The notes under the pieces were generated by a model that saw only the letters and a list, made by a program, of their open reading frames with translations, was not told the origin of the DNA and did not search any database. Shown here in pieces: positions 9,937-58,398 of a stretch of DNA of 64,000 bases. This DNA is from Agrococcus jejuensis (GTDB lineage: Bacteria; Actinomycetota; Actinomycetes; Actinomycetales; Microbacteriaceae), in assembly GCF_007679035.1 (NCBI RefSeq), contig NZ_VEFR01000002.1:349245-413244 (forward strand). The letters are read 5' to 3'. Each line of letters begins with the position of its first letter. Positions within the stretch are counted from its first letter, which is position 1. The translations under genes were made by a program, and so were the position numbers.

Positions 9937-11481
9937 TCACAGGGTCAGCCCGTGCCCCGGCCCGACGGGCAGGCCGAGCAGACCCCACACGAGGAACTGC
10001 AGCAGCCACACGCCCCAGATGACGAGGGTGAACGGGATGACGAGGCTGAAGAGCGTGCCGAGGCCGGCCTTGGGCGACCAGCGCTGCAGCAGGCCGAGCA
10101 CGACCGGCAGCATCGGGTTCATCGGCACGAGCGTGTTCGTGGCGGAGTCGGTGATGCGGAACGCGGCCTGCACGTAGGCCGGGTCGATGCCGGCGAGCAT
10201 GAACATCGGCACGAAGATCGGTGCGAGCAGGGTCCACAGCGCGGATCCGGATGCGAGCAGCAGCGCGGGCAGCGTGCAGAAGAGGCTGAACAGCAGCAGG
10301 CCGCCGATGCCGCCGAGGCCCGTCGCCTCCATGCCCTGCGCGCCGGCGGTGGCGATGAGCAGGCCGAGCTGCGACCAGTTGAACCACGCGATCGCCTGCG
10401 CGGCCGTGAAGATGACGACGATGAACGGCACGAGGTCCTTCACCGCGGCCGCCATGTGCTCGGGCACGTCGGTCGCCTTCGTCAGCGTCTTCGCGCCGAG
10501 GCCGTAGGCGACGCCGGCGACGAGGAACAGGAAGAGGATGAAGATCGGCAGCGCCGTCATGAACGGCGAGCGCAGGATCTGACCGCCCTCGCCCTGCAGC
10601 GGCGAGCCGGGCACGAGCAGCGCGGTCGCGACGAGCGCGAGGTAGGCGACCACCGAGATCGCGGCGATGCGCAGCCCGCGGCGCTCGATCGGCTCGAGCG
10701 GCTTCGACGCATCCTCGTCGGCCAGCCCGCCCTCGTACGGCGTGAGGCGCGGCTCGACGTAGCGCTGGCACACGATGGTGATGACGATGGCGAGGATGAG
10801 GGTCGACGTGGCCATGAAGAAGTAGTTGGCGACGGGCGACACCGATGCCTCGGGGTCGACGATCTGCGCCGCGGACGTCGTGATGCCCGAGAGCAGCACG
10901 TCGGTGCCTGCGGGCACGATGTTGGCGGAGAACCCGGCGACGACGGCCGCGTAGGAGGCGGCGAAGCCCGCGAGCGGGTGACGGCCGGCGGCGAGGAACG
11001 CGGCGGCCGCGAGCGGCGGCAGGATGACCATGGCCGAGTCGGAGGCCAGGTTGCCCATGAGGCTCACGAGCACGACGACGAAGGTCACGGCCCAGGCGGG
11101 CGCGGCGAGCACGGCGCCGCGCATCGCGGCCTTCAGCAGCCCGAGGCGCTCGGCGACGCCGATGCCGAGCATGACCGTGACGATGAGCCCGAGCGGCGGG
11201 AACGTGACGAAGTTCGTGATGGCGTTCGTGAGCGCGTAGACGGCGCCCTCGCCGGAGAGGATGCTGCGGATCGGCACCGTCTCCCCCGTCGCCGGGTCGG
11301 TCGTCTCGGCGCCGAGCAGCGCCGCGATGCCCGAGGCGACGGCGACGAGGCCGGCGATGATGAGGAAGAGGTAGAAGGGGTGGGGCAGCTTGTTGCCCAC
11401 CCGCTCGATGCCGCGCAGGATGCGCCCGCCGACGCCCTTGGCGTCGGCGAGCGTGAGCGTCGTGGTGGTGTCGGTGGACAT
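9937..11481 (-). CDS. abgT: AbgT-family transporter (p-aminobenzoyl-glutamate / dipeptide uptake)
   Basis: The 514-aa polytopic membrane protein starts MSTDTTTTLTLADAKGVGGRILRGIERVGNKLPHPFYLFLII, which is characteristic of the AbgT N-terminus. Confidence 0.85.
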   Translation of the reverse strand: MSTDTTTTLTLADAKGVGGRILRGIERVGNKLPHPFYLFLIIAGLVAVASGIAALLGAETTDPATGETVPIRSILSGEGAVYALTNAITNFVTFPPLGLIVTVMLGIGVAERLGLLKAAMRGAVLAAPAWAVTFVVVLVSLMGNLASDSAMVILPPLAAAAFLAAGRHPLAGFAASYAAVVAGFSANIVPAGTDVLLSGITTSAAQIVDPEASVSPVANYFFMATSTLILAIVITIVCQRYVEPRLTPYEGGLADEDASKPLEPIERRGLRIAAISVVAYLALVATALLVPGSPLQGEGGQILRSPFMTALPIFILFLFLVAGVAYGLGAKTLTKATDVPEHMAAAVKDLVPFIVVIFTAAQAIAWFNWSQLGLLIATAGAQGMEATGLGGIGGLLLFSLFCTLPALLLASGSALWTLLAPIFVPMFMLAGIDPAYVQAAFRITDSATNTLVPMNPMLPVVLGLLQRWSPKAGLGTLFSLVIPFTLVIWGVWLLQFLVWGLLGLPVGPGHGLTL

Positions 11482-30751: not shown

Positions 30752-30867
30752 GGCGAGGAGACCTCTCGGAGGGCATGACTGCAGGGATTGCGACGAGCGC
30801 AGAGATGCTCCGGCGGCACTGATTCCGTAGCGTCACGATCCTATGCGTCCGCACCGCACATTCGTGA

Positions 30868-39520: not shown

Positions 39521-40271
39521 ATCGGGCCAGCCAGCCGCCGTCGACGGGCAGGATCGCGCCCGTCACGTACGCGGCCGCGGGGCTCGCGAGGAACACCGTC
39601 GCGCCGCCGAGGTCGTCCGCACGGCCCCAGCGGCCCGCCGGGATGCGCTCGAGGATGGCCGCCGAGCGGTCGGGGTCGTCGCGCAGCGCCTCGGTGTTGT
39701 CGGTCGCGATGTAGCCGGGCGCGATGCCGTTCACCGTGACGCCACGGCTGGCCCACTCGTTCGACAGCGCGTGCACGAGGCCCGCGACGCCCGACTTCGC
39801 GGCCGCGTAGCCCGGCACGTTGATGCCGCCCTGGAACGTCAGGAGGCTCGCGGTGAAGATGATGCGGCCGTGGCCGCGCTCGAGCATGCCCGCGGCGACG
39901 GCCTGCGAGAGCACGAACTGGCTCGACAGGTTCACCTGCAGCACCTCGTCCCACCACTCGAGCGGGTGCTCGGCGGCAGGCGCGCGGCGGATCGTGCCCG
40001 CGTTGTTCACGAGGATGTCGGCACCGCCGACGCGCGCGCCGAAGGCCTCGACGGCGGCGCGGTCGGAGAAGTCGACGGCGTGGCCCTCGAATGCGCGACC
40101 GAGGTCGCGCACACGGCGGCCGATCTCGCCGCCGTCGGCCTCCTGGCTCGACGAGGCGGCGACGATGTCGGCGCCGGCCTCGGCGAGCGCGAGGGCCATG
40201 GCGAAGCCGATGCCGCGGCGCGCGCCGGTGACGACGGCCGTCTGGCCCGTGAGGTCGAACGAGACGGTCAT
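39519..40271 (-). CDS. kduD: SDR-family 2-dehydro-3-deoxy-D-gluconate 5-dehydrogenase (KduD-like)
   Basis: The nucleotide-binding motif TGARRGIG is present, and so is the catalytic Y-x3-K (YAAAKSGVAGL). Confidence 0.75.
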   Translation of the reverse strand: MTVSFDLTGQTAVVTGARRGIGFAMALALAEAGADIVAASSSQEADGGEIGRRVRDLGRAFEGHAVDFSDRAAVEAFGARVGGADILVNNAGTIRRAPAAEHPLEWWDEVLQVNLSSQFVLSQAVAAGMLERGHGRIIFTASLLTFQGGINVPGYAAAKSGVAGLVHALSNEWASRGVTVNGIAPGYIATDNTEALRDDPDRSAAILERIPAGRWGRADDLGGATVFLASPAAAYVTGAILPVDGGWLAR

Positions 40272-41293
40272 GCGCGGGCTCCCTGCACGTCGACGAGGAT
40301 CTTCATGGCGTCGCCGACCGCGAGGGCCTCGAACGCGGCCTGCGTGTCGTCGAGGGGCACGACGCGCGTGATGAGCTCGTCGGCGGGCACCTGACCGGAG
40401 GCGAGCAGGTCGACGGCGCGCTCGAAGTCGGCGCGCTCGTAGACGCGAGCGCCGATGAGCTCGAGCTCGCGCCAGAAGACGCGGTGCAGGTCGATCGGCA
40501 CGGGCTGCGCGTGGATGGCGACCATGACGACGCGGCCGCGCACGCGGGCGAGGTGCGGGCTCGACAGCGCGGTGGCGGCGACGCCGGCGACCTCGAACAC
40601 GACGTCGGCGCCTGCGCCGCCCGTGCGCTCGTCGACCACCGCGGGCACGTCGGCGCCGATGGGGTCGAGGGTGTCGGCGCCGAGGCGCTCGGCGAGCGCG
40701 CGGCGCTCGGCGTTGGGCTCGACGACGAGCACGTGCGCACCGGTCGCGCGAGCGACGAGGGCGATGAGCTGGCCGATGGGGCCGCCGCCCACGACGACGA
40801 CATGCTCGCCCGCGGCGACGCGGCCTCGGGCCACGTCGTGGCACGCGACGGCGAGGGGCTCGACGAGCGCCGCGTGGCGCAGGGAGAGGGATGCGGGCAG
40901 CGGCACGATGAGCGCCGCATCCACGTTCCACCGCTCCTGCAGCGAGCCGGGGCTGTCGATGCCGACGAAGTTGAGGCGCTGGCAGACGTGACCGTTGCCG
41001 GCCTCGCACGCGGGGCACGAGCCGCACGCGTCGAGCGGCATGACGGTGACCTGGTCGCCGACCGCGATGTCCGTCACGCCCTCGCCGACCGCGGCGATCG
41101 TGCCGCTCATCTCGTGGCCGATCGACTGCGGCGTCGTGACGCGGGAGTCCATCGAGCCGTGCAGCACGTGCAGGTCGGTGCCGCAGATGCCGGTGTAGGC
41201 GACGTCGATCTGCACCTGGCCCGCGGCGGGCTCGGTGGCGGCGACCTCGTCGACGGTGATGCGGTGCTCGCCGCGGTACTGCGCTGCCCTCAT
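40268..41293 (-). CDS. Zinc-dependent medium-chain alcohol/polyol dehydrogenase (idonate / sorbitol / threonine-dehydrogenase type)
   Basis: The zinc-binding segment is GICGTDLHV...GHEMSGT, with structural-zinc cysteines CGSCPACEAGNGHVC and a Rossmann motif VVVGGGPIG. Confidence 0.8.
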   Translation of the reverse strand: MRAAQYRGEHRITVDEVAATEPAAGQVQIDVAYTGICGTDLHVLHGSMDSRVTTPQSIGHEMSGTIAAVGEGVTDIAVGDQVTVMPLDACGSCPACEAGNGHVCQRLNFVGIDSPGSLQERWNVDAALIVPLPASLSLRHAALVEPLAVACHDVARGRVAAGEHVVVVGGGPIGQLIALVARATGAHVLVVEPNAERRALAERLGADTLDPIGADVPAVVDERTGGAGADVVFEVAGVAATALSSPHLARVRGRVVMVAIHAQPVPIDLHRVFWRELELIGARVYERADFERAVDLLASGQVPADELITRVVPLDDTQAAFEALAVGDAMKILVDVQGARA

Positions 41294-41424
41294 GCGCGGA
41301 TGCTCCCTTGGATCCGTGAAACTTGCTTCCATCCGAAGGTCCACGTTGCGGAACTTCGTTTCGTGACGCTACCGTACCCGAAGCGGTCGTCCCACGCACC
41401 GCGGAACTTCAACGAGGAGGATCC

Positions 41425-42438
41425 ATGCGCAGCATGAGGGTCGGCGCCATCGCCGGCATCGCGACCGTCGGACTCGCCCTGGCGGCGTGCTCGGGCGGCA
41501 CGGGCGGCGAGGGCGGCTCCGCCGACCAGACCGTCTTCCGCGTCGCGTTCAACCAGGACATCGACCACCCGCAGGCGCAGGCGCTGCTCGAGGTGTCGGA
41601 TGCGCTCGAGGAGGCGACCGACGGCGCCTACCGCTTCGAGCTCTTCACCGACGAGACGCTCGGCGACCAGGCCGCGACGATCGAGCAGGTCCAGTCCGGC
41701 ACCCTCGACTTCGCGATCGTCGCAGGCAGCCTGCTCGAGAACTTCGAGCCCGACTTCTCGGTCGTGAACCTGCCGTACCTCTACGAGTCGCCCGAGCACC
41801 AGATGACCGTGCTCAACGACCCCGAGATCATGGGCGACCTCTACGAGACCGTCGTCGACGACAGCATCCAGGTGCTCACGGCCTACCACGGCGGCGTGCG
41901 CAACGTGTACACGACCGAGGGCCCCATCGAGACGCCCGAGGACCTCGCGGGCCTCAAGATCCGCGTCATCGGCTCGGACACGAACGTGCTCATGATGGAG
42001 CTCATGGGCGGCGTCGGCACCCCGATGGCGCAGGGCGAGGTCTACACGGCCATCCAGTCGGGCGTGCTCGACGGCGCCGAGAACAACGAGCTCATCTACT
42101 CGACGCTCAGCCACGACGAGATCGCCGGCTACTACTCGTACACGCAGCACCTCATGATGCCCGACTACCTCATCGCGAGCCCGACCGTCTGGGACGGCCT
42201 CGACGACGAGACGCGCGGCATCCTCGAGGACCTGCTCGCCGACAGCGTCGACACCGAGCTCGAGCTCTTCGCGACCGCCGTCGACGAGGCGGTCGCCGCC
42301 GCCGAGGAGGCCGGTGCGCAGTTCTCGGACGCCGACGTCGACGCCTTCCGCGAGGCCGTGCTGCCCATCCACGAGGAGCGGGTCACGAGCGACCTCACGC
42401 AGTCGATCTACGACGCGATCGACGCGGCGCGAGGCTGA
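41425..42438 (+). CDS. dctP: TRAP transporter substrate-binding subunit (DctP family), a lipoprotein
   Basis: The lipobox is LALAACSG. DctP-family body segments include NLPYLYESPEH and GLKIRV. The Shine-Dalgarno is GAGGAGGA. Confidence 0.85.
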   Translation: MRSMRVGAIAGIATVGLALAACSGGTGGEGGSADQTVFRVAFNQDIDHPQAQALLEVSDALEEATDGAYRFELFTDETLGDQAATIEQVQSGTLDFAIVAGSLLENFEPDFSVVNLPYLYESPEHQMTVLNDPEIMGDLYETVVDDSIQVLTAYHGGVRNVYTTEGPIETPEDLAGLKIRVIGSDTNVLMMELMGGVGTPMAQGEVYTAIQSGVLDGAENNELIYSTLSHDEIAGYYSYTQHLMMPDYLIASPTVWDGLDDETRGILEDLLADSVDTELELFATAVDEAVAAAEEAGAQFSDADVDAFREAVLPIHEERVTSDLTQSIYDAIDAARG

Positions 42439-42440
42439 CG

Positions 42441-42968
42441 ATGGCGAACGCCGTGACCACGTTCGAGACCTGGCTCACCAGGGTGCTCCGCGTCATCTGC
42501 GCCACGCTCTTCGCAGTGCTCGTGGCGCTCGTGACCTGGCAGGTCTTCACCCGGCTCGTGCTCGGGGACCCGAGCCCGTGGACGGAGGAGGCGGCTCGCT
42601 ACGCCTTCGTCTGGGTGAGCCTCATCGGCATCGCGATCGCGGTCGCCGAGAAGGCCGACGTGGTCATGGAGTTCGTCGTCGAGCGCCTGCCGAGGGCGCT
42701 GCAGCGCGTCGCCGACGTGCTCGCCTACCTCTCCACCCTGTCGTTCGTCGTGTACGCCATGATCATCGGCGGCTTCGAGCTCGTCGACCTCGCGTGGGGG
42801 CAGCGCAACCCGCTGCTGCCCCTCACGCAGGGCCAGCTGTACCTCGTGATCCCCATCTCGGGCGTCCTGCTCGCGCTCTTCCTGCTCCTGCACCTCGGTC
42901 GCGTGCTCGCACCCGGCTACGCAGGGCGCGAGGGCTTCCACGAGGACCCCGCGGCGGCCGGCGCATGA
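42441..42968 (+). CDS. dctQ: TRAP transporter small permease (DctQ)
   Basis: The 175-aa protein has 4 transmembrane segments and lies immediately after dctP. Confidence 0.8.
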   Translation: MANAVTTFETWLTRVLRVICATLFAVLVALVTWQVFTRLVLGDPSPWTEEAARYAFVWVSLIGIAIAVAEKADVVMEFVVERLPRALQRVADVLAYLSTLSFVVYAMIIGGFELVDLAWGQRNPLLPLTQGQLYLVIPISGVLLALFLLLHLGRVLAPGYAGREGFHEDPAAAGA

Positions 42969-44272
42969 TCGATCCAGCGCTCATCGGCGCCATCCTCATC
43001 GGTGGCCTCGTCATCCTGCTCGCGGTCGGCGCCCCCGTGTCGATCTCCATCGCGCTGCCGTCGGCGGTGTGCATGCTCCTCATCTCCGACTTCGACCGCG
43101 GCGCCATCACGAGCGCGCAGCAGATGGTGCGCGGCGCCAACTCGTTCGCGTTGCTCGCCATCCCGTTCTTCGTGCTCGCCGGCGTCATCATGAACAACGG
43201 CGGCATCGCCGAACGGCTCATCAACCTCGCCCGCGTGCTCGTGGGCAGGATGCCGGCGCCGCTCGTGCAGTCGAACGTCATCGCGAACGCGATCTTCGGC
43301 ACCGTCTCGGGCTCGGCCGTCGCCTCGGCGGCCGCCGTCGGCTCGACGATGGCGCCGATGCAGAAGCGCGAGGGCTACGACCCCGCCTTCGCGGCCGCCG
43401 CGAACGTCGCCTCGGCGCCGTCGGGCATGCTCATCCCGCCGAGCAACACGCTCATCGTCTACTCGCTCGCCGCCGGCGGCACCTCGGTCGGCGCGCTCTT
43501 CCTCGCCGGCTACGTGCCCGGCTTCCTGTGGGCGCTCGCGTGCGCGGTCGTCGTGTTCCTCTACGCCCGCAAGCACCCCGAGCTCAAGGGCAAGCCGTGG
43601 CCCGCGCCGTCGGTCTTCCTCACGACCTTCCTCAAGGCGCTGCCGTCGCTCGGCCTCATCGTCGTCGCCATCGGCGGCATCGTCGCCGGCTTCTTCACCC
43701 CCACCGAGGGCTCGGCGATCGCGGTGCTCTACGCGCTCGCGCTGTCGTTCGCCTACCGCACGATCAAGGTCCGCGACCTGCCGCGCATCCTGCTCGAGGC
43801 GTGCCGCACGTCGTCGATCGTGATCTTCCTCATCGCGGTCTCGACGATCATGGGCTTCGTCATGACGTACGCGCGGCTGCCGCAGCTCATGGCGGATGCG
43901 CTGTTCGGCTGGACGGACTCGAAGGTCGTCGTGCTGCTCATCATGATGCTGCTGCTGCTCGTCATCGGCATCCCGCTCGACCCCACGCCGGCGATCCTCA
44001 TCTTCACGCCGATCTTCCTGCCCATCGCCGTCTCGTACGGGATCGACCCCGTGCACTTCGGCATCATGATGGTCTTCAACCTGTCGATCGCGGTGATCTC
44101 GCCACCATCGGCACCGGTGCTCTTCGTGGGCGCGCAGGTGGCGAAGGTGCGGCTCGAGCCCGTCATCAAGCACCTGCTGCCGTTCATGGCCGTGCTCATC
44201 GTGCTGCTGTTCGTCATCGTGTTCGTGCCCGAGATCTCGCTGTGGCTGCCGCAGCTCGCCGGCCTCCTGTGA
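42965..44272 (+). CDS. dctM: TRAP transporter large permease (DctM)
   Basis: The 435-aa polytopic protein has DctM-typical segments (IPFFVLAGVIMNNGGIAERL). Its start overlaps the dctQ stop (ATGA). Confidence 0.85.
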   Translation: MIDPALIGAILIGGLVILLAVGAPVSISIALPSAVCMLLISDFDRGAITSAQQMVRGANSFALLAIPFFVLAGVIMNNGGIAERLINLARVLVGRMPAPLVQSNVIANAIFGTVSGSAVASAAAVGSTMAPMQKREGYDPAFAAAANVASAPSGMLIPPSNTLIVYSLAAGGTSVGALFLAGYVPGFLWALACAVVVFLYARKHPELKGKPWPAPSVFLTTFLKALPSLGLIVVAIGGIVAGFFTPTEGSAIAVLYALALSFAYRTIKVRDLPRILLEACRTSSIVIFLIAVSTIMGFVMTYARLPQLMADALFGWTDSKVVVLLIMMLLLLVIGIPLDPTPAILIFTPIFLPIAVSYGIDPVHFGIMMVFNLSIAVISPPSAPVLFVGAQVAKVRLEPVIKHLLPFMAVLIVLLFVIVFVPEISLWLPQLAGLL

Positions 44273-44289: not shown

Positions 44290-45123
44290 ATGCCCTCCGC
44301 CTACCGTCCCGGCCGCCCCGAGGACATCCCCGGCCTCGACCAGGCCGCGCTGCGCGACCGCTACCTCGTGCAGGGGCTGCTGACGCCCGGCGAGGTGCGC
44401 ACGGTCGTCACGCACTTCGACCGCGTCGTCGCGGTCGGCGCGGTGCCGACGGATGCGCCGCTGTCGCTCGAGGCCGTGCCGGAGATCCGCTCGGAGCGGT
44501 TCCTCGACCATCGCGAGATCGGCATCGCGAACGTGGGCGGCGCCGGCACGATCGTCGCCGACGGCGAGCGGTTCGCCATGGCGCCCGAGGCGCTGCTGTA
44601 CCTGGGCCGCGGCACGAGGGAGGTCGTCTTCGAGTCCGACGACGCCGCGAGCCCCGCCGCGTTCTACGGCTTCTCGGCACCCGCCCACGCGACGTTCCCG
44701 AACGCGCTCGCGACGCCGGCCGACGGCACGATCCGCGAGCTGGGCGACCAGGCGACGTCGAACCGGCGCACGCTGCGCCAGGTGATCCACGAGGACGGCA
44801 TCCGCTCATGCCAGGTGGTGATGGGCATCACGCGCCTGCACGAGGGCAGCATGTGGAACACGATGCCGGCGCACACGCACGACCGCCGCACCGAGCTCTA
44901 CCTCTACTTCGACCTCGCGGCCGACGCCCGGGTCGTGCACCTCATGGGTGAGCCCGACGAGACGCGCCACCTCATGGCCGCGTCCGGCGACCTCATCCTG
45001 TCGCCGTCGTGGTCGCTGCACTCGGGCGTAGGCTCATCGAACTACGCGTTCGTGTGGGCCATGGCGGGCGAGAACCAGTCGTTCGACGACATGGACTCGG
45101 TGCCGATCGCCGCGATGCGGTGA
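44290..45123 (+). CDS. kduI: 5-dehydro-4-deoxy-D-glucuronate isomerase (KduI)
   Basis: The 277-aa protein has a cupin fold and matches KduI (GSMWNTMPAHTHDRRTELYLYF...SPSWSLHSG). Confidence 0.8.
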   Translation: MPSAYRPGRPEDIPGLDQAALRDRYLVQGLLTPGEVRTVVTHFDRVVAVGAVPTDAPLSLEAVPEIRSERFLDHREIGIANVGGAGTIVADGERFAMAPEALLYLGRGTREVVFESDDAASPAAFYGFSAPAHATFPNALATPADGTIRELGDQATSNRRTLRQVIHEDGIRSCQVVMGITRLHEGSMWNTMPAHTHDRRTELYLYFDLAADARVVHLMGEPDETRHLMAASGDLILSPSWSLHSGVGSSNYAFVWAMAGENQSFDDMDSVPIAAMR

Positions 45124-45137
45124 CGGGAGGGAGTCAC

Positions 45138-45917
45138 GTGGTGCTGGAGCAGATCGACCGCTCGGCCGCCCCCGCTGCGGGGGCGAGCGAGAAGACCCTG
45201 CGCGTGCTGCAGGCCGCGCTCGAGCACCCGCGCTTCACCGACATCGTCGCCGAGGCCGGCCTCGCCAAGGCGACGGTGCACCGCATCCTCGCGACGCTCG
45301 TCGAGCAGGAGTTCATCGCCGGCGACGCCGACCACGGCTACCGCGCCGGCCCGAGCCTGCTGACGCTCGCGGGGCGCGCGCTCGCCTCGGTCGACATCTC
45401 GTCGATCGCCGAGCCGATCGTCGACGACCTCGTCGCCCGCGTCGACTGCACCGTGCACGTGGGCGTGCTCACCGACGCCGAGATGGTCTACGTCATCCGC
45501 AAGGACGCGTCGAAGCCCTACCGCATGCGCTCGCGCGTCGGCCTCGGCATCCCGATGCACTGCTCGGGCATGGGCAAGGCCGTGCTCGCGTCGTGGAGCC
45601 CCGAGCGCGTCGACCAGCTCGTCGCACGCGAGGGGCTGCCGGCTCGCACCGAGCTGACGATCACCACCCCCGAGGCGCTGCACGAGGAGCTCGCACGCGT
45701 CGCGGCACGCGGCTACGCGATGGACCTCGGCGAGAACGAGGTGGGCACGGTGTGCGTCTCGGCACCCATCCGCGACCACTCGGGCGCCGTCACCTACGGG
45801 CTGTCGATCTCGTCGATCGCGCTCGAGCACCCCGGCACGTCGATCGAGGCGCTCGCTCCCGCCGCGATCGAGGCGGCCGACGAGATCTCGCGACTGCTGG
45901 GCGCGCCGAGCGCCTGA
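45138..45917 (+). CDS. IclR-family transcriptional regulator (KdgR-like)
   Basis: It starts at a GTG preceded by GGGAGGGAG. The HTH segment is FTDIVAEAGLAKATVHRILATL and an IclR effector domain follows. It ends the dctPQM-kduI operon. Confidence 0.8.
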   Translation: MVLEQIDRSAAPAAGASEKTLRVLQAALEHPRFTDIVAEAGLAKATVHRILATLVEQEFIAGDADHGYRAGPSLLTLAGRALASVDISSIAEPIVDDLVARVDCTVHVGVLTDAEMVYVIRKDASKPYRMRSRVGLGIPMHCSGMGKAVLASWSPERVDQLVAREGLPARTELTITTPEALHEELARVAARGYAMDLGENEVGTVCVSAPIRDHSGAVTYGLSISSIALEHPGTSIEALAPAAIEAADEISRLLGAPSA

Positions 45918-45933: not shown

Positions 45934-46254
45934 CTACGCCGCGACGGCGACGGCGACGGGAGCGGCTGCGACGACCGCGGCGACGACCATGCCCGCCGGT
46001 CGGTTCGCGTGGCGCATCATGTCCTCGAGGCGATCGCGGTCGAGCGCGGGCTGGGCGCCGGCGGCGAACGTGTAGCGCAGCATCGCCGAGGGATGGATCC
46101 ACAGCGACTCGCGGCTCCCGCCGGCGTCGATCGAGAGCACGAACGCCTCCTGGCGTCGGAGCTTGGCGACGACGATCGCCGACACGTGCACGAGCGTCTC
46201 GTCGTCGATCGTGAACGACGCGTCGCTGCTGGTGCCGTAGTGCAGAGTGCCCAT
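45934..46254 (-). CDS. Small conserved actinobacterial protein of unknown function (DUF-type)
   Basis: The 106-aa translation starts MGTLHYGTSSDASFTIDDETLVHVSAIVVAKLRRQEAFVLSI, which resembles a widespread family of small actinobacterial proteins. Confidence 0.45.
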   Translation of the reverse strand: MGTLHYGTSSDASFTIDDETLVHVSAIVVAKLRRQEAFVLSIDAGGSRESLWIHPSAMLRYTFAAGAQPALDRDRLEDMMRHANRPAGMVVAAVVAAAPVAVAVAA

Positions 46255-46512: not shown

Positions 46513-46629
46513 GGATCCGACTCAAGCAGAACGGCTTCCGTTTAGCAAGTTTGTCAAGATGAATGTTTGCAGACATGGCCGCTTCTCGTGGCACTATGGT
46601 CGAGAGGACAGCGATGCGAAGGAGGGGCC

Positions 46630-47130
46630 GTGACCGATCGCGGACCACAGGCGACGACCGGATTCACCTACGACGCCTCCGCATCCAGCGACGGACCCGA
46701 GGCCATGCTGAATCTGCTGCTCGAGTACCGCGAGGCCGAGGCCGCGCTGCGGCGCCGCGTCGCCGACGACCTCGAGATCGGCGACCTCGACCTGCTCGGC
46801 CTGCGCTACATCGCTCGCGCCGCGGAGCAGGGAGCGCCGCTGCGTCCCTCCGACCTGCGCGACCTGCTGCTCATCACGACCGGCTCCACCACCGCACTCC
46901 TCGACCGGCTCGAGACGCGCGGACTCGCGACGCGCGCGCCGCATCCGACCGACCGACGCTCCTCGGTGCTCGAGCTCGACGAGGCCGCGACCGCGATCGT
47001 GCGCGACGCGCTCGACGGCATGCAGGCGAGCATCCTCGACGTCGCAGAGCACCTCGATCCGCACGACCGCGCGACCGCCATCCGCGTGCTCCGCGACCTC
47101 ATCGCCGCCACCCGCACCGCCAGCGCCTAG
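46630..47130 (+). CDS. MarR-family transcriptional regulator
   Basis: The winged HTH is visible (LRPSDLRDLLLITTGSTTALLDRLETRGLATRAPHPTDRRS). The start is a GTG preceded by GAAGGAGGGG; the ATG at 46705 is an alternative start. Confidence 0.7.
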   Translation: MTDRGPQATTGFTYDASASSDGPEAMLNLLLEYREAEAALRRRVADDLEIGDLDLLGLRYIARAAEQGAPLRPSDLRDLLLITTGSTTALLDRLETRGLATRAPHPTDRRSSVLELDEAATAIVRDALDGMQASILDVAEHLDPHDRATAIRVLRDLIAATRTASA

Positions 47131-48099: not shown

Positions 48100-48790
48100 T
48101 CCGCTGGGATCGTGGTGCTCCGGCCTCCCCGTCAGCTGGTCGAGAGCCGTCCTTCCCTTGCCGCCCTCCGTCCGGGGACGCCCTCCTTCCAGCTGGTCGA
48201 GGAGGCCCCGAGCGCAGCGAGGAGCCGTCTCGAGACCACGCGACGTGCCCGCTCGGCGCGACCACGCGCGTGGCCGGGCAGGAGCAGCGCTCCCGTGGTC
48301 TCGTGACGCGGGCTCGCCCAGGGGCTCGCGCGCTCCTCGACCAGCTGGATGGGGGCCGCCCGGCCCGCCCGCCCCTTGCCGCCCTCCGTCCGGGGACGCC
48401 CTCCTCCCAGCTGGTCGAGGAGGCCCCGAGCGCAGCGAGGAGCCGTCACGAGACCACGCGACGTGCCCGCTCGACGCGACCACGCTCATGCTGGTGGGGA
48501 GCCGCCCGGCCCGCCCGCCCCTTGCCGCCCTCCCTCCGGGGACGCCCTCCTCCCCGCTGGTCGAGGAGCGCAGGCGCGAAGCGCCTCCGCGTCACGAGAC
48601 CACGCGACGTGCCCGCCCGAGGCGACCACGCGCGTGGCCGGGCAGGAGCCGCGCTCGCGTGGTCTCGTGACGCGTGCTCGCCCAGGGGCTCGCGCGCTCC
48701 TCGACCAGCTGGTGGGGAGCCGAACGGCCCGTGAGGTACGAACGCAGAGCCTCGAACGGCCCCCTCAGGACACGCGAGCCCCCACCACCG
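48100..48790. repeat. Tandem block of composite GC-rich palindromic repeats, about 3 copies of a ~210-bp A+B unit
   Basis: The unit has two parts. Part A is CAGCTGGTGGGGAGCCGCCCGGCCCGCCCGCCCCTTGCCGCCCTCCGTCCGGGGACGCCCTCCTCC. Part B is CAGCTGGTCGAGGAGGCCCCGAGCGCAGCGAGGAGCCGTCACGAGACCACGCGACGTGCCCGC...CGCGTGGTCTCGTGACGCG.GCTCGCCCAGGGGCTCGCGCGCTCCTCGAC. CGTCACGAGACCACGCG and CGCGTGGTCTCGTGACG are exact reverse complements. Confidence 0.7.
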
Positions 48791-51743
48791 CATCCGCCAG
48801 CACGCCGTCCGCCCACTCGCGGGCCACGTCGCCGACGTCGAGCGGTCCCGACGCGTCGTGCCTGCCGTACTCGCCGACGCGCGTGGCGCCGCGGGCAGCG
48901 AGCGCCTCGTCGACGCGCTCCGACCCGCGCGAGTACGTCTTCGCGTACGAACGGTCGCCCATCCCGAAGACCGCGTACCGCAGCGCGTCGAGCCGACCCG
49001 AGCCGGCGACGAGCGCCTCGTGGAAGGGCCGCGCAGCGGTCGGCACCTCGCCGTCGCCGTACGTCGAGCAGACGACGAGGTGGATGCGCGACGCGTCGAG
49101 CGCCTCGGGGTCGGCGTTGGCGAGGTCGACGACAGCCACGTCGGTGCGGCCCGCGAGGTGCTGCGCGAGGTCCTCGGCGACGAGCTCGGCGCCGCCCGAC
49201 TCCGTGCCGAAGAGGATCGTCACGGGCACGCCGACGCCGCCCGCCGCATCCGCGACGGCCCCGATCTCCGGCAGCGCGATCGACGCGTCCGCCGCGACTG
49301 CCCGCAGCGCGTCGATCGTGCGCAGCTTCGCGCGCCGCCGGCCGGGCGCGGCCGCGAGCGTCTCGGCGACGTCGATGCGCCGCCAGCCGTCGAAGTCCGT
49401 CGCGCCGTCGAAGTCGGCGACGCCCGGCCGACCGATGGGCACGGCACCCGTCGACAGGTCGTCGAGCACGAGCCCCGCGAGCCCCTTCGCGTCGGTGCGC
49501 TGGTCGGGGATGGTGCCACGGGGTCCGCGGCGCAGCCAGCCGGCGACGTAGAGGCCCGGCTCGACGCGGCCATCGGCGTGCGCGCCGGGCTCGACCAGGC
49601 AGTCGTCGCCTGCCGCGAAGCCGATCGCGGTCACGACCGACGACGCCTCGAGCACCCGCTCCCCCGCGGGCGTCGCCACGCGCATGCCCGCGACGGCCTC
49701 GGCACCGAGCACCGCGACGGGCGTCGCACCGAACCACCAGTGGATGCGCACGCGCACGTCCCCGACCATCCCGGACGCGCGAGCGGCGAGCGCGCGCACG
49801 GCATCCATGCGCGCATCCTTGCCCTCGGGCACGGTGGCGAGGTCGACGTCGTGCACGACGTGCTCGACCCCGGCGAGCGTGGCGAGCTCGCGCACCATCA
49901 CGGGGTCGAAGCGTGCTGCGTCGGGCGCGGAGCGACCCACGAGATGCACGTCGCGCACGTCGCCGGCGAGCGCGTGCCGCACGGCGTCGTCGACGTCGGT
50001 GCCGTCGAACTCGGCGGGGTCGCGGACGACGAGCCGCGCCACGTCCATCGCCACGTTGCCGTGGCCCACGATCACGACCGAGCGGCCGAGCGACGGCACG
50101 TCGGCCTCGTCGGGGTGGCCGTTCAGGATGCGCGTGACCGTGCCCGCTCCGACCACACCGGGCAGCGAGGCGCCCGGGATCGCGAGCGCCGCGTCGGCCG
50201 AGAGCCCCGTCGCCAGCACGACCGCGTCGTAGTCGCGACGCAGGCGGGCCAGCGCGTCGGCGTCCACGTGCACGCCGCCGACGAACCGCACGCCCTCGTG
50301 CAGGAACAGCCGGTCGAACTGCCGCGCGACCGCCTTCGTGCCCTGGTGGTCGGCGGCGACGCCGTGCCGCACGAGCCCGTACGGCACGGGCAGGCGATCC
50401 ACGACGTCGAGGTGCGCGGCAGGCAGCGCGCGCCGCAGGGCCTGCGCCGAGAAGCAGCCCGCGGGCCCCGAGCCGACGATCGCGATGCGCGGCGCGAGCG
50501 CGGGCGCCGCGGCATCCCGCGCGGCGTCGACCGCGACCGACGCGCCCGCCGGGGCCACGGCATCCCACGCGATGGGCATCGAGAGCATGCCGCGGAACAC
50601 CCAGCCGCCGACCTCCGCCGGTCGGTCCGGCACGAGGTCGAGGCCGCGCAGCCGATCGAAGAGCATCGGCAGCGCCACGTCGGCCACCGCCGAGCGCGCC
50701 GCCCAGTTGCCGAGGCACACGTGCACGCCCTTCGAGAAGGCGAGGTGCGGCTTGACCTCGCGGCGCACGTCGAACGCGTCCGCGCGATCCCACACCGACT
50801 CGTCGCGGTTCGCGGAGAGGATGCAGATGCCGAGCCTCGCCCCTCGCGGCAGCGTGACGCCGGCGAGCTCGACCTCGCGCGTCGTCTGCCGCGAGTACAG
50901 CCCGATGGGCGAGATCCAGCGGATCGTCTCCTCGAACGCCGTCGGCCACAGGGTTGCATCCGCCTCGATGATGCGGCGCTGCTCGGGGTGCTGCAGCACG
51001 GCCCATGCGGCGACGCCCAGCGCGTCGCGCGGCTCGTTGAGCCCGCCGCCGATCGTCATCTTTACGTTGGCTCGGATGCGCTCGATGGGCATCTCGTAGT
51101 CGGGGATGCGGATGAGCTGCGAGAGGAGCGAGTGGTCGGGGTGCTTCGCGTGCCACGCGAGCATCTCGTCGAGCGCGGCGTCGACCTCGTCGAACGAGCG
51201 CTCGCCCCTCGCCCACACGTCGGGGTCGTCGGCGTAGTTGCCGGTCGCGTCGATGAGCGTCTGCGACCACCGCTGCAGGTCGGTCTGGTGCACGTTGTGC
51301 AGGCCGAGCATCTCGCGCAGGTTCTCGGCGGCGAAGGGGGCGGCGAAGTCCCAGATGAGGTCGGCCTCGCCAGGACCCTTCGCGATCATCTCGTCGAGGT
51401 AGCGCGCGGCGTTGCGCTCGAAGACGCTGCGCCACACGCGCTTCACGACGCCGGGCCGCAGCGTCGGCTGCCACGCCTTCCGCTCGAGGTGGTGCTCGGG
51501 GTCGTCGCGTCGCAGCATCGAGTGCCCCATGGCGCGGATCTGCAGCGACCCCTCCTCGTTCGCCGAGAAGGTCGCCTGGTCGACCTCGGTCGCGTGCACG
51601 GCGTCGTAGGTCGTGACGAGGTACCGGCCGACGGCGGGCACCCAGTGCACGCCGCCCTCGGCGCGCAAGCGCTCGTAGATGGGGAAGGGGTCGCGGTACA
51701 GGTCGGCGATCTGCACCCAGTCGGCGACGGGAGGGGTCGGCAT
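48765..51743 (-). CDS. Self-sufficient cytochrome P450 fused to an adrenodoxin-reductase-like FAD/NADPH reductase and a C-terminal flavodoxin (P450-FprA/XplB-like-flavodoxin)
   Basis: It is a single 992-aa ORF. The N-terminal P450 has the ExxR motif EETIRW and the Cys-ligand loop FSKGVHVCLGNWAARS. The middle domain has GxGxxG (IAIVGSGPAGCF), a second Rossmann fold (VVIVGHGNVAMDVARLV) and an adrenodoxin-reductase-like segment (YVAGWLRRGPRGTIPDQRTDAK). The C-terminal flavodoxin has VTILFGTESGGAELVAEDLA...VVCSTYGDGE...YAVFGMGDRSY. Confidence 0.85.
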   Translation of the reverse strand: MPTPPVADWVQIADLYRDPFPIYERLRAEGGVHWVPAVGRYLVTTYDAVHATEVDQATFSANEEGSLQIRAMGHSMLRRDDPEHHLERKAWQPTLRPGVVKRVWRSVFERNAARYLDEMIAKGPGEADLIWDFAAPFAAENLREMLGLHNVHQTDLQRWSQTLIDATGNYADDPDVWARGERSFDEVDAALDEMLAWHAKHPDHSLLSQLIRIPDYEMPIERIRANVKMTIGGGLNEPRDALGVAAWAVLQHPEQRRIIEADATLWPTAFEETIRWISPIGLYSRQTTREVELAGVTLPRGARLGICILSANRDESVWDRADAFDVRREVKPHLAFSKGVHVCLGNWAARSAVADVALPMLFDRLRGLDLVPDRPAEVGGWVFRGMLSMPIAWDAVAPAGASVAVDAARDAAAPALAPRIAIVGSGPAGCFSAQALRRALPAAHLDVVDRLPVPYGLVRHGVAADHQGTKAVARQFDRLFLHEGVRFVGGVHVDADALARLRRDYDAVVLATGLSADAALAIPGASLPGVVGAGTVTRILNGHPDEADVPSLGRSVVIVGHGNVAMDVARLVVRDPAEFDGTDVDDAVRHALAGDVRDVHLVGRSAPDAARFDPVMVRELATLAGVEHVVHDVDLATVPEGKDARMDAVRALAARASGMVGDVRVRIHWWFGATPVAVLGAEAVAGMRVATPAGERVLEASSVVTAIGFAAGDDCLVEPGAHADGRVEPGLYVAGWLRRGPRGTIPDQRTDAKGLAGLVLDDLSTGAVPIGRPGVADFDGATDFDGWRRIDVAETLAAAPGRRRAKLRTIDALRAVAADASIALPEIGAVADAAGGVGVPVTILFGTESGGAELVAEDLAQHLAGRTDVAVVDLANADPEALDASRIHLVVCSTYGDGEVPTAARPFHEALVAGSGRLDALRYAVFGMGDRSYAKTYSRGSERVDEALAARGATRVGEYGRHDASGPLDVGDVAREWADGVLADAVVGARVS

Positions 51744-51875
51744 CGGTTCGCTCCGCTTCCACGCGCAGCACCGTCGCTGCACATGCATCCAGCATCCGTC
51801 GTGGTCTTCCTCGTGAAAAGCGGAGAGATGCGACCTGCAACTGCGATAGAACCGAGGAAGCGGTGATTGGTCACT

Positions 51876-51934
51876 TCTGTCGTTCGATTGGGCAGTAGTG
51901 GCGGACGACACGCCGCAGCACGTGCAACTACTGC
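51876..51934. repeat. Palindromic element CGATTGGGCAGTAGTGG-N25-CAACTACTGCCCAATCG (copy 2 of 2)
   Basis: It has perfect 15-bp arms. The loop (GACACGCCGCAGCACG) is similar to that of the copy at 1196-1253. It lies in the divergent region between the P450 fusion and the LysR gene. Confidence 0.6.
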
Positions 51935-51960
51935 CCAATCGACGATGGGAGACCGCCCGC

Positions 51961-52887
51961 GTGACCCCCGACTCGCCCATCCCCGACTTCACGCTGCGAC
52001 AGCTCGCGTACCTCGTGGCCGCGGCCGACGACGGCACGATCGCGGCGGCGGCGGCGCGGCTGCACGTGTCGGCGTCGGCGATCTCGGATGCGATCAGCGA
52101 GCTCGAGCGCTCCCTCGGCGCGCACCTCGCCATCCGTCGCCGCGCGCACGGGCTCACGCTCACGAGCGCCGGCGCGCACGTGGTCGCGCAGGCGCGTCCG
52201 CTGCTGGCAGCGGCGCGCGAGCTCTCGACGAGCCTCCACGCCGACGGCGCGCTCGTGGGGCCGATCACGATCGCCTGCTTCCCGACGCTCGCGCCCACGA
52301 TCCTGCCGCCGCTGCTCGCGGGCTTCGCCGCCGAGCATCCCGGCGTCGACCTGCACGTGGTCGAGACGACGCAGGACGGCCTCGCCGGCCGCATCGAGTC
52401 GGGCGAGATCGACGTCGCGTTCGTGTACGAGACGCTCGTGCCCGGCAACCCGCGCCGTCGTCGCCTGTACGCCCTGCCCGCGCACGTCGTGCTCGCCGCC
52501 GACGACCCGCTCGCCGCGCAGCCGACCGTGCGGCTGGAGACCCTCGTCGATCGCGACCTCATCCTGCTCGACGCGCCCCCGTCGAGCGAGCACACGCTCT
52601 CGCTGTTCGCGGCCCGCGGGCTCACCCCGCGCATCCGCCAACGCGTGCGCAGCTACGAAGCGGTGCGCACGCTCGTGGGCCGCGGGCTCGGCTACGGCAT
52701 CCTCGTGCAGCGGCCGGCGAACCCGGCGAGCTACGAGGGCTTCCCGCTCGCGCTGCGCGAGATCGCGCCGGCGGTCGACCCGGTCGGCGTCGACGTCATC
52801 TGGTCGGCGGATGCGGATGCTCCGCCGCGCGTGCGCGCGCTCATCGACTTCGCGACGTCGCTGGAATGGCGTTCACCGACGACCTGA
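51961..52887 (+). CDS. LysR-family transcriptional regulator, divergent from the P450 fusion
   Basis: The HTH segment is FTLRQLAYLVAAADDGTIAAAAARLHVSASAISDAISELE and a LysR substrate-binding domain follows. The start is placed at the GTG (VTPDSPIPDF). The earlier ORF-track start at 51898 would make the protein overlap the palindromic element. Confidence 0.7.
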   Translation: MTPDSPIPDFTLRQLAYLVAAADDGTIAAAAARLHVSASAISDAISELERSLGAHLAIRRRAHGLTLTSAGAHVVAQARPLLAAARELSTSLHADGALVGPITIACFPTLAPTILPPLLAGFAAEHPGVDLHVVETTQDGLAGRIESGEIDVAFVYETLVPGNPRRRRLYALPAHVVLAADDPLAAQPTVRLETLVDRDLILLDAPPSSEHTLSLFAARGLTPRIRQRVRSYEAVRTLVGRGLGYGILVQRPANPASYEGFPLALREIAPAVDPVGVDVIWSADADAPPRVRALIDFATSLEWRSPTT

Positions 52888-53217: not shown

Positions 53218-53718
53218 ATGCCCGACTCCGTGCCGACGCCGGCTGACGACGCCGCTGCGACCGCATCCCCGAGCCCCGCATCCATCGCGCCCGGCTCGCT
53301 CGTGTGGCGCATCAAGTCGTCGCTCATCGGCTACGTGCGCGGCATGTCCGACGGCGAGGTGCTGGTCGACGACGGCGTGCACGAGACCCCGCACGGCTTC
53401 GCGTTCCCGCCGAGGGGCGCCGACGGCGACACGCTGCGCTTCGGTGGCGTCGTGACGTTCCAGGGCCACAACGGCATGATGCACGTCGAGCTGTCGGAGC
53501 CGTCGCTCACGCCCGTCGGCGACGGCTGGCGCGTGGAGTTCTCCGACCCGGATGCGCCGACGGTGCGGCTGCACTTCGCCGACGTCGCGTCGGTCGTGAC
53601 CGGCGGCGATGGCACGCAGCACGGCACGGGCACGTTCCTCGCCGCCGACGGCGCCGACCTCTTCTTCGGGCCGTACGAGCAGGGCACCCCGCTCGACGAC
53701 CCGTTCGTGCAGGGCTGA
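53218..53718 (+). CDS. HtaA-domain-containing protein with no obvious signal peptide
   Basis: The translation contains LVWRIKSSLIGYV...GFAFP...FGGVVTFQGHNGMMHVELSEP..., which matches the HtaA (heme-binding) domain pattern L.WG.K.SF..Y...F.G.V.F.GH.G.L. The N-terminal 30 aa are low-complexity and not signal-peptide-like. Confidence 0.5.
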   Translation: MPDSVPTPADDAAATASPSPASIAPGSLVWRIKSSLIGYVRGMSDGEVLVDDGVHETPHGFAFPPRGADGDTLRFGGVVTFQGHNGMMHVELSEPSLTPVGDGWRVEFSDPDAPTVRLHFADVASVVTGGDGTQHGTGTFLAADGADLFFGPYEQGTPLDDPFVQG

Positions 53719-55767: not shown

Positions 55768-56693
55768 TCAGGCGACCTGCGCGAGGCCGCGCTGCGCGTC
55801 GCTCACGACGGCGCGCTTCGAGGCCGCACGCCGGCGCTGCAGGATGCCGAGCAGCGACCAGCGGTAGTCGCGGGCGGCGCCGAGCGCAGCGGTGAGGCGG
55901 TCGAGGTAGACGGCGATGATGACGACGCTCAGGCCGGCCTCGACGCCCGTGGCGATGTCCACGGTCGACATGGCCTGCACGATCTCGGAGCCGAGCCCGG
56001 GGGCGCCGGCGATGCCGGCGATGACGGCCATCGACAGCGCGAGCATGATGACCTGGTTGATGCCGGTCATGATCGTGGGCATCGCCAGCGGCAGCTGCAC
56101 GCCGCGCAAGATCTGCCCGGGCTTCGCGCCGAAGGCGTACCCGGCCTCGACGGTCTCGCCGTCGACGCCGCGGATGCCGAGCTCCGTGAGCCGCACGCCG
56201 GGCGGCAGCGAGAAGATGATCGTCGCCACGAGGCCCGGCACGACGCCGATCGAGAAGAAGACGATCGCCGGGATGAGGTAGACGAAGCCGGGCATGGCCT
56301 GCATGAGGTCGAGGATCGGCCGCAGGATGGCGCTGAACCGGTCGCTGCGCGCGGCGAGGATGCCGAGCGGCACGGCCACGAGCACGGTCACGACGGTGGC
56401 GACGAGCACGAGCGCGAGCGTCTGCATCGCGGTGATCCACTGGCCCATGCCGAGGATGAGCGCGAACGTGATGGCGGTGCCGAGGGCGAACTGCCACGAG
56501 CGCAGCAGCCAGGCGAGCAGCGCGGCGATCACGATGACGACGACGATGGGCGTCGACACGAGCAGCTCGGTGAGCGAGCGCACGAGCGTGCCCATCACCA
56601 TCGAGAGCGTGCCGAGCAGCCAGTCGAGGTTGTCGCGCATCCAGCGCACGGCGTCCTCGGCCCACATGCCGATGGGGATGCGGAAGCCATCCA

Positions 56694-56694
<1 letters not shown>
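55768..56694 (-). CDS. proW: Glycine-betaine/proline ABC transporter permease (ProW / OpuAB-like)
   Basis: The 308-aa polytopic protein has BPD_transp_1-type segments. Confidence 0.85.
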
Positions 56695-57977
<1,283 letters not shown>

Positions 57978-58398
57978 GTGCACCTCACGCCGCCGCGCAG
58001 GATGGCGCGCGGCAGCATCGGTCGCGTCCGGGTCAGCGGTCCGGCGGCGCGCATCCATGACGGACGGCGCACGGCGCGGATGTCGGATCTGCGCCACGGG
58101 CCACCGACCGTACGCTCGCCGGTCTGGTGCCGCGGTGCTCACGCACCTGCAGGCATCACCAGCGACCGCGGACTGGTCGGATCGGGCCCCGAGGGACCGC
58201 ATCCACCATGTCTCCGAGGATTGCTCGATGCAACCGCGCTGAGGGCTTGCGCACTGCTGGCACCGCGACTATCACGTGCGTGCGTAGCAAAGCCTCGTGC
58301 ATGCTTCCCGGCCGCGATCGTGCGCCGAACGTTGCCCTTTCGTGACCTTCCCGCGCGGGTCGGCGGGCGGTCGGCGCCCCCTGCTATGCCCGCCTCGG

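Follow-up and report, generated by a model that had tools for sequence, protein, structure and literature searches.

A naturally fused cytochrome P450–reductase–flavodoxin of Agrococcus jejuensis as a probable self-sufficient enzyme of the CYP1232 family

Natural single-chain cytochromes P450 (P450s) that carry a whole electron-transfer chain are few, the classic ones being CYP102 and CYP116B, and these are prized as biocatalysts because there are no partner proteins to find or balance. A 2024 review distinguishes ten classes of P450 systems, including class III, in which reductase (FdR), flavodoxin (Fld), and P450 are separate, and class VI, a Fld–P450 fusion; none of the ten has the layout P450–FdR–Fld (PMC11173547). 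The present analysis concerns a gene with this layout, located in a stretch of 64,000 nucleotides of the Agrococcus jejuensis genome (assembly GCF_007679035.1, contig NZ_VEFR01000002.1, positions 349,245–413,244; the whole stretch is called the window below). No description of a fusion of a P450, an adrenodoxin reductase (AdR)-type enzyme, and a flavodoxin was found in the full-text literature, the coverage of which leaves out most subscription journals. The fusion is built entirely from known parts working in a known way, and its layout is absent from the standard P450 classification. The encoded protein is probably a catalytically self-sufficient P450, that is, a class III system joined covalently into a single chain by a one-time operon fusion, for which O-demethylation of homovanillate-type compounds appears the most likely reaction. 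Such a family would add a third fusion chemistry, AdR-type reductase plus flavodoxin, to the two classic ones.

The nearest functional relatives of the fusion are unfused class III systems, namely, CYP1232A24 with its Fld and FdR and P450cin (CYP176A1) with cindoxin. Klenk et al. (J Biochem 2019) reportedly reconstituted the activity of CYP1232A24 with its physiological partners, and the enzyme is said to demethylate homovanillate and 3,4-dimethoxyphenylacetate to 3,4-dihydroxyphenylacetate. According to a review that refers to Klenk et al., the electron partners encoded in the CYP1232A24/F1 gene cluster from Arthrobacter are a flavodoxin and a flavodoxin reductase (PMC9687028). The fusion shares with CYP1232A24 the P450 family and subfamily (61% identity) and, going by that review, the kinds of redox partners (PMC9687028), and CYP1232A24 is placed as sister to the fused clade; however, its chain of about 405 residues lacks redox domains and its partners are separate, whereas the fusion is one chain of 992 aa. 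In the P450cin/cindoxin/cindoxin reductase system, electrons likewise pass from NADPH through an FAD reductase and an FMN flavodoxin to the P450 (PMC9687028, PMC11173547), but the three components are separate polypeptides and the P450 belongs to an unrelated family. The components that define class III (FAD reductase, FMN flavodoxin, and P450; PMC11173547) are all present in the fusion. Since they are encoded by one open reading frame (ORF) and are not separate polypeptides, the fusion would work like class III without being a member of the class as defined.

The gene and its parts are as follows:

48765–51743, minus strand: whole fusion gene, 992 codons plus stop (ORF and translation; 100% identical protein P0001 on record; N-terminus aligning with orthologues)
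50556–51743, minus strand: P450 domain of the CYP1232 family, aa 1–396 (match with 6g71, NCBIfam models, motifs)
50490–50555, minus strand: linker 1, Ala/Pro-rich, aa 397–418 (predicted local distance difference test score, pLDDT, below 50 at aa 402–406)
49293–50489, minus strand: AdR/FprA-type FAD, NAD(P)H reductase domain, aa 419–817 (1cjc, 1lqt, Foldseek)
49224–49292, minus strand: linker 2, aa 818–840 (pLDDT below 50 at aa 829–836)
48768–49223, minus strand: short-chain flavodoxin (FMN) domain, aa 841–992 (PF00258, cindoxin 4oxx)

The initial annotation, made from the sequence alone, had placed a single polypeptide of 992 aa at 48765–51743 and had left the strand unstated. These coordinates were borne out on the minus strand, where the frame runs uninterrupted from the ATG at 51743 to the stop codon at 48765–48767, with no stop or frame change between the domains, as had been proposed; translation of the plus strand of 48765–51743 gives no protein. 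All motifs that had been quoted were located in the protein in the expected order, namely, EETIR (aa 271–275) and FSKGVHVCLG (aa 336–345, with Cys343) in the P450 part, IVGSGPAG (aa 422–429), VVIVGHGNVAMD (aa 556–567), and GWLRRGPRGTIPDQ (aa 735–748) in the reductase part, and FGTESGGAE (aa 845–853), CSTYGDGE (aa 892–899), and FGMGDRSY (aa 926–933) in the flavodoxin part.

Long chance ORFs are abundant in the window because of its G+C content of ~74%. The codon-position G+C of the fusion gene is 0.72/0.56/0.94, the pattern of a real gene along the whole length, and a protein 100% identical to the fusion is on record as 'cytochrome P450 [Agrococcus jejuensis]' (P0001). That a missed stop codon or frameshift has joined three adjacent genes into an artefact or pseudogene could be suspected from the existence of unfused operons with overlapping stop and start codons and from one orthologue, P0063 of Agrococcus sp. 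SGAir0287, with a frameshifted C-terminus. The chance of this is negligible in view of the codon pattern and of the recurrence, in more than 120 protein clusters and at 80 independent genome loci, of one continuous ORF whose linkers can be aligned. Since the identical protein is on record and the same three-domain ORF recurs in these clusters and in loci from independent assemblies, the fusion is not an assembly artefact, and the existence of P450, reductase, and flavodoxin in one chain is confirmed. As for P0063 (1032 aa), its identity to the fusion is 86% along the first 76% of the query, after which it is out of frame, its flavodoxin domain having been lost either in a real pseudogene or through an indel error of a long-read assembly.

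A domain scan placed all three expected families above the Pfam gathering scores: Flavodoxin_1 with 78.9 bits (cut-off 25), p450 with 47.7 bits (cut-off 22.8), and Pyr_redox_2 with 38.4 bits (cut-off 26.1). Besides p450, Pyr_redox_2/NAD_binding_8, and Flavodoxin_1, no domain type was returned by Pfam or NCBIfam at E ≤ 0.01.

The haem domain (aa 4–396) matches PDB entry 6g71, the structure of CYP1232A24, with E = 1e-167 and a Foldseek template modelling (TM) score of 0.80, and is 61% identical to CYP1232A24 (6G71) over 390 residues according to tblastn. The P450 superfamily features are present, i.e., the P450 fold, the K-helix ExxR motif E272-T-I-R275, and the FxxGxxxCxG loop with the proximal Cys343; the ExxR motif and the Cys343 loop are invariant across 59 orthologues. 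NCBIfam P450 models span aa 16–392. Thus, the initial annotation was correct in seeing a P450 at the N-terminus (motifs, Pfam, NCBIfam, 6g71), but its estimate of ~430 aa for the extent was too long, the domain ending at about aa 396. In P450 nomenclature, an identity above 40% defines a family and one above 55% a subfamily. Since 61% lies above the 55% line, the haem domain belongs by the identity rule to the CYP1232 family, subfamily A; a formal name is for the nomenclature committee to give.

The next closest solved haem domains are those of SyoA and GcoA (E about 1e-45 to 1e-53, roughly 29% identity), which are aromatic O-demethylases of CYP255 and thus represent another P450 family than that of the fusion. 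In GcoA/GcoB, the GcoB part is a separate three-domain reductase. SyoA and GcoA share with the fusion an amide-acid pair in the I-helix. In the fusion, Asn236-Glu237 replaces the usual acid-alcohol pair (GGGLNEPRD, aa 232–240, 51024–51050), and Asn-Glu is invariant. A Gln-Glu 'amide-acid pair' at the same I-helix position supports peroxide-driven turnover in CYP255 enzymes, and SyoA demethylates exclusively via the peroxide shunt. An amide-acid pair is odd in a P450 fused to a full NAD(P)H chain.

The middle domain had been assigned to the AdR/FprA/XplB type, and structural comparison upholds this. It is an FAD domain of the glutathione-reductase/adrenodoxin-reductase type, of which aa 417–809 match bovine adrenodoxin reductase 1cjc in two stretches (E = 6e-45) and aa 420–765 match Mycobacterium tuberculosis FprA 1lqt (E = 8e-39), with Foldseek TM scores to FprA and AdR of 0.78–0.79 over about 455 columns. 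The dinucleotide motifs are GSGPAG (aa 424–429) and GHGNVA (aa 560–565), and the domain also contains GWLRRGPRGTI (aa 735–745); neither of the GxGxxG/A motifs nor GWLR-G--G-I varies across 59 orthologues.

The C-terminal flavodoxin domain proposed earlier was likewise found, as indicated by the PF00258 score, the FMN phosphate loop, and the match of aa 842–983 with cindoxin 4oxx, the FMN partner of P450cin, which is the closest solved match (E = 3e-21). The similarity with the FMN domain of CYP102A1 (BM3) is more distant (E = 4e-14). The FMN phosphate loop TESGGAE (aa 847–853), Tyr895, and Tyr933 are invariant in 59 orthologues, and by the motif positions of cytochrome P450 reductase (CPR) and BM3, the two tyrosines are candidate FMN-stacking residues.

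All three domains are constrained and the linkers are variable. Mean identity to the window protein across 58 orthologues is 79% for the P450 (aa 1–396, length range 391–400), 29% for linker 1 (aa 397–418, 15–38), 63% for the reductase (aa 419–817, 392–435), 40% for linker 2 (aa 818–840, 21–29), and 69% for the flavodoxin (aa 841–985, 142–161). 3D modeling in the AlphaFold2 program with 59 orthologues gave three folded units with a mean pLDDT of 81.4 and a predicted TM score (pTM) of 0.64; low confidence is confined to the haem loop, the B-C loop, and the two linkers. The top Foldseek match was 'Structure of CYP1232A24 from Arthrobacter sp.', followed by FprA and adrenodoxin reductase.

As the initial annotation had stated, the layout is neither that of CYP102 nor that of CYP116B: the FAD domain is of the AdR type, and since no further domain was returned by Pfam and NCBIfam, a ferredoxin-NADP reductase (FNR)-type FAD domain, a 2Fe-2S domain, and a PFOR-type module are excluded. 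The fusion resembles CYP102A1 (class VIII) and CYP116B (class VII) in that a single polypeptide begins with the haem domain and also holds the complete electron chain from NAD(P)H to haem, and the FMN domain of BM3 is a distant relative of its flavodoxin domain. However, the FAD/NADPH part of BM3 is of the FNR (CPR) type and follows the FMN domain, whereas in the fusion a two-Rossmann AdR-type FAD domain precedes it. The module of CYP116B is of the FMN/2Fe-2S PFOR type, which was not returned in the fusion protein.

A match with XplA/XplB had also been proposed, and it holds for the redox parts and not for the haem domain, which is of the CYP1232 family and not XplA-like. Residues 419–965 are 43% identical, in collinear order, to an FAD oxidoreductase gene and the start of an adjacent 552-aa P450 gene. 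This gene pair was found on plasmid pGKT2 of Gordonia sp. KTR9 and on a plasmid of Rhodococcus sp. DN22, and we take it to be xplB and xplA of the RDX plasmids. In XplA/XplB, the order is FdR and Fld-P450 in two proteins, whereas in the fusion it is P450–FdR–Fld in one; seen from class VI (XplA type), where Fld is N-terminal to the P450 and the reductase is separate, the fusion differs in having Fld at the C-terminus and the reductase in the same chain. When the whole protein was compared with solved structures, the 60 best matches (best listed E down to 2e-28) did not include XplA, which catalyses reductive RDX denitration; a close relationship between the two haem domains is thus excluded.

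The reductase-flavodoxin part was searched against 1.84 billion representative proteins. Among the matches listed, one representative has the P450–FdR–Fld layout (P0121) and one has a permuted layout (P0127), most of the others being stand-alone reductases of about 420 aa with 35–50% identity. The uncharacterised P0127 (980 aa) combines the three domain types in one chain, with the reductase from aa 9–168 onwards (44% identical to that of the fusion), the flavodoxin at aa 386–519, and the P450 at the C-terminus. It differs in its circularly permuted order FdR-Fld-P450, like a fused xplB-xplA, and in its P450 family (best PDB matches CYP125 and CYP130), and hence represents an independent fusion event.

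In a genome scan with one genome per species, 128 stretches matched, and 80 of these loci were retrieved. The three-domain protein was found in more than 120 clusters at 63–91% identity. At least 80 species carry the fusion intact, and many of them belong to the Micrococcales; hosts include Agrococcus, Microbacterium, Leucobacter, Agromyces, Isoptericola, Kineococcus, Brevibacterium, Arthrobacter, Yaniella, Enteractinococcus, Citricoccus, Gulosibacter, and others. The fusion is therefore a conserved, mobile gene family of many genera that is labelled just 'cytochrome P450' in databases. In addition, it was found in the gammaproteobacteria Halomonas, Kushneria, Larsenimonas, and Terasakiispira, with 58–60% identity over the full length. 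In these Halomonadaceae loci (L034, L035, L037, L038, L039, L043, and L044), the fusion has an hpa meta-cleavage cluster and a phenol-2-monooxygenase-type gene on one side and a tripartite ATP-independent periplasmic (TRAP) transporter on the other. In the neighbour-joining (NJ) tree of haem domains, the Halomonadaceae copies form one clade nested among the actinobacterial ones beside Brevibacterium. This nesting implies horizontal transfer across phyla, by which the fusion gene would have entered the Halomonadaceae once, from a Brevibacterium-like donor as proposed here, and the transfer indicates that the gene, once fused, is functional as a unit that can be moved between hosts.

As for the origin of the fusion, unfused operons of the same gene order are known. 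Metagenome locus L081 has a divergent LysR gene followed by genes for a P450 (67% identity, aa 3–396), FdR (46%, aa 422–817), and Fld (46%, aa 841–987), the last two overlapping by 4 nt, and plasmid pRho-G13 of R. opacus has the same p450-fdr-fld order with overlapping stop and start codons. In the NJ tree, all fused members form one clade whose sister group consists of CYP1232A24 and L081-type stand-alone P450s; inside the fused clade there are also four short database entries, no fewer than two of which seem to be truncated. The L081-type operons serve here as a proxy for the gene cluster of CYP1232A24 itself, the best match of the 6G71 protein search being 62%. The provisional conclusion is that a single fusion event, in which the stop and start signals of a p450-fdr-fld operon would have been lost once, was followed by vertical and horizontal spread. 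Together with the permuted fusion, the unfused operons provide a natural series on how tethering and domain order relate to electron-transfer rate and coupling.

A different kind of partner was seen in Arthrobacter mobilis (L083:8001–10852), where a stand-alone CYP1232-like P450 (56% identical to the haem domain of the fusion) occurs with a 2Fe-2S ferredoxin and a putidaredoxin-reductase-type reductase; the redox-partner type is thus variable within the CYP1232 family. FolD, GlyA, and PurU genes lie nearby, which suggests one-carbon handling.

In the proposed mechanism, NAD(P)H would reduce the FAD of the AdR/FprA-type middle domain, and the C-terminal flavodoxin would accept single electrons on its FMN. 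Held by a flexible tether of about 23 residues, the flavodoxin may then shuttle electrons to the proximal face of the CYP1232A haem domain, either within the same chain or to the partner chain of a dimer, and the haem domain would activate O2. The scheme is supported by analogy with two P450 redox chains that are known to function, cindoxin as partner of P450cin and XplB with the flavodoxin part of XplA. In the reaction considered here, a methoxylated phenylacetate (homovanillate or 3,4-dimethoxyphenylacetate) would be converted to 3,4-dihydroxyphenylacetate (homoprotocatechuate) and formaldehyde, and homoprotocatechuate would feed the Hpa meta-cleavage pathway. Demethylation of aromatic methoxy groups, a reaction of the family to which the haem domain belongs, is rate-limiting in funnelling lignin-, alkaloid-, or catecholamine-derived aromatics to central metabolism, and the fusion enzyme probably demethylates plant- or amine-derived aromatic acids.

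The genomic context was assessed in the 80 loci with an in-house gene caller using G+C at the third codon position and the difference between the first and second positions, followed by clustering; this procedure is approximate, and key neighbour genes were confirmed by NCBIfam and tblastn. The commonest neighbour of the fusion is a divergent LysR gene, present in 43 of 74 related loci, and a metabolite/H+ symporter of the major facilitator superfamily is near the fusion in 38 loci. Genes of the Hpa homoprotocatechuate meta-cleavage pathway occur within 10 kb in many of the 74 loci: at least one in 38, at least three in 26, and HpaD in 24. The neighbour representatives scored above the NCBIfam cut-offs for HpaD (446 against 321), iron-type HpaD (442 against 316), HpaE (767 against 638), HpaH (356 against 352), and HpaI (426 against 369), and an FAH-family protein fused to an RraA-like domain was also above its cut-off. 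A phenol-2-monooxygenase-type flavoprotein of 635 aa adjoins the fusion in 18 loci. The Hpa genes are the context expected of an enzyme that makes homoprotocatechuate.

The same neighbours, which consume homoprotocatechuate, would suit any producer of this compound. The same architecture could hence serve another reaction, either the step otherwise performed by HpaBC, in which homoprotocatechuate would be made by hydroxylation of 4- or 3-hydroxyphenylacetate or some other arylacetate, or conversion of an unrelated substrate; no HpaB-type hydroxylase was seen among the conserved neighbour clusters, and hpa genes are missing from this 64-kb window. This alternative is nevertheless unlikely, given that the haem domain is above the subfamily line with CYP1232A24, which is reported to be an O-demethylase, that aromatic O-demethylation is also the reaction of SyoA and GcoA, which follow next among the solved structures, and that the phenol-2-monooxygenase-type flavoprotein could perform the ring hydroxylation. 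Homovanillate-type O-demethylation is therefore somewhat favoured as the substrate assignment.

Upstream of the fusion in the window, the following features were identified:

51744–51960, no strand: divergent intergenic region of 217 bp, presumed promoter and operator
51961–52887, plus strand: divergent LysR-type regulator, 308 aa (Pfam HTH_1 and LysR_substrate; GTG start chosen from homologue alignment)
53218–53718, plus strand: small protein of about 166 aa with an HtaA/CR-type domain (Pfam HtaA, E = 2e-13), downstream of the LysR gene

Apart from the fusion, only two genes of this window recur in the related loci, namely, that for the LysR regulator and that for the small CR-domain protein. 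Homologues of the CR-domain protein were detected by tblastn in 59 of the 80 loci, and in several of them the CR-domain gene extends over the fusion start codon (the copy in L057 is at 10537–10980). CR/HtaA domains are known so far from cell-surface haem uptake. The profile of the CR protein matches corynebacterial haem-binding CR structures 6jsa (3.5e-18) and HtaA-CR2 8smu (3e-16), and its Y15, H60, and Y129, invariant in alignments A3 and A4, align with 'Y(I/V)xG', 'GH(G/H)G', and 'FY' of 6jsa and 8smu; 6jsc is a His-to-Ala variant of 6jsa. The companion is therefore an HtaA/CR-type protein predicted to bind haem, the triad Tyr (axial ligand)/His/Tyr being kept. A signal-peptide-like N-terminus was not visible by eye in the aligned CR homologues, and in L085 and L087 the domain forms part of a cytoplasmic flavoprotein; the protein is apparently cytosolic.

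In other loci, related reductases begin with a fused CR domain (P0124, P0125, P0157, and P0171). For two of these fused genes (L085:6001–7767 and L087:3407–5152), the operon has the order [CR-FdR], flavodoxin, P450, and copper amine oxidase; reductase and flavodoxin are 45–48% identical to the fusion domains and the P450 is unrelated (26%). The CR domain thus travels with the redox module rather than with a particular P450 family. No CR-domain gene accompanies any of the Halomonadaceae and Brevibacterium copies or the L081 operon, which indicates that the gene is not essential. Its product could be a haem donor or modulator. A doubtful but conceivable extension is that the fusion represents an unrecognised class of self-sufficient P450s whose redox module recruits the cytosolic haem-binding CR protein as a fourth component, which might supply the P450 with haem or influence the flow of electrons. 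If true, such a role in P450 haem loading or electron transfer would be new for CR/HtaA domains.

In Arthrobacter sp. NyZ413 (L057:8734–13969) and A. terricola (L058:8835–14074), a divergent LysR gene is followed by an operon comprising a CYP1232-family P450 (42% to CYP1232A24), a flavodoxin (51% to the Fld domain), the CR-domain gene, and the fusion. No separate reductase gene was seen in this gene run, and the stand-alone P450 may therefore receive its electrons from the fused reductase as well.

These operons bear on whether the chain is autonomous at all. The fused module might serve other acceptors such as stand-alone P450s, or the haem domain might need an extra component (the CR protein) or the peroxide shunt. 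Co-transcription of the fusion with a stand-alone CYP1232 P450 and flavodoxin in L057 and L058 would fit such a view, as would the frequency of the CR gene and its fusion to reductases elsewhere, and the I-helix pair resembles that of the peroxygenase-capable CYP255 enzymes. However, the CR gene is dispensable, as seen from the lineages and the operon without it, and the joint conservation of the three domains across distant genera together with their transfer between phyla is hard to explain unless they form a unit. Non-autonomy is accordingly rated as improbable, and the self-sufficient single-chain enzyme is retained as the preferred interpretation.

Several observations weigh against the self-sufficient O-demethylase. 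The GRRGP segment of AdR and FprA, which holds the Arg pair for the 2'-phosphate of NADPH, is GRSAP in the fusion, with the second Arg replaced by Ser; R604 is invariant and S605 nearly so in the 59 orthologues, so either NADPH or NADH may be preferred. The pTM of the AlphaFold2 model is only 0.64 and the model contains no cofactors, and the NJ tree carries no bootstrap support values. The frequent CR companion hints that the chain may not be fully autonomous in vivo, and the I-helix Asn-Glu pair could indicate a peroxide contribution to turnover. As for the substrate, the proposal draws on the gene neighbourhoods of other genomes and on the similarity of the haem domain to CYP1232A24 (61% identity). 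No hpa homologue was detected by tblastn within this 64-kb window, so this copy may act on another substrate.

A LysR gene directly upstream in divergent orientation had been noted before, and its place at 51961–52887 was confirmed. Its product is 70% identical (tblastn) to the LysR protein adjoining the fusion in Agrococcus sp. KRD186 (L004) and probably controls fusion expression. The intergenic region contains an inverted repeat of 19 nt with 95% complementarity and a 21-nt spacer (51884–51902 / 51924–51942), located 19 nt upstream of the LysR start codon; since the repeat is not conserved in related loci, it was ruled out as a family-wide operator. Sigma-70-like and terminator-like sites were not found around the fusion gene, and no Rfam match was obtained in the window. 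In the roughly 630 bp that follow the stop codon of the fusion (48131–48764), there is no clear codon-position signal, and the one candidate ORF there (48132–48449, minus strand) has no Pfam match.

Other genes around the fusion in the window are the following, none of which is conserved beside the fusion in other genomes:

40268–41344, minus strand: Zn-dependent alcohol dehydrogenase
41323–44272, plus strand: TRAP transporter DctP and DctM genes
45009–45917, plus strand: IclR regulator
45934–46254, minus strand: DUF7882 protein
46567–47130, plus strand: MarR regulator
55768–58097, minus strand: ATP-binding cassette (ABC) transporter with a CBS-domain ATPase, osmoprotectant-uptake-like

The halotolerant hosts and the CBS-domain ABC transporter had suggested a quaternary-amine (glycine betaine) demethylase; this candidate was dropped after the Hpa synteny and the match with CYP1232A24 were found.

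Farther away, the window contains one giant ORF:

13265–30832, minus strand: CshA-type surface adhesin, 5856 aa

In its scanned N-terminal 2000 aa and C-terminal 1999 aa, 32 CshA repeats, Big_9 and cadherin-like repeats, and a CshA_NR2 head were found, with a weak LPXTG-anchor match at the C-terminus. This ORF accounts for the strong GC skew at 16–30 kb.

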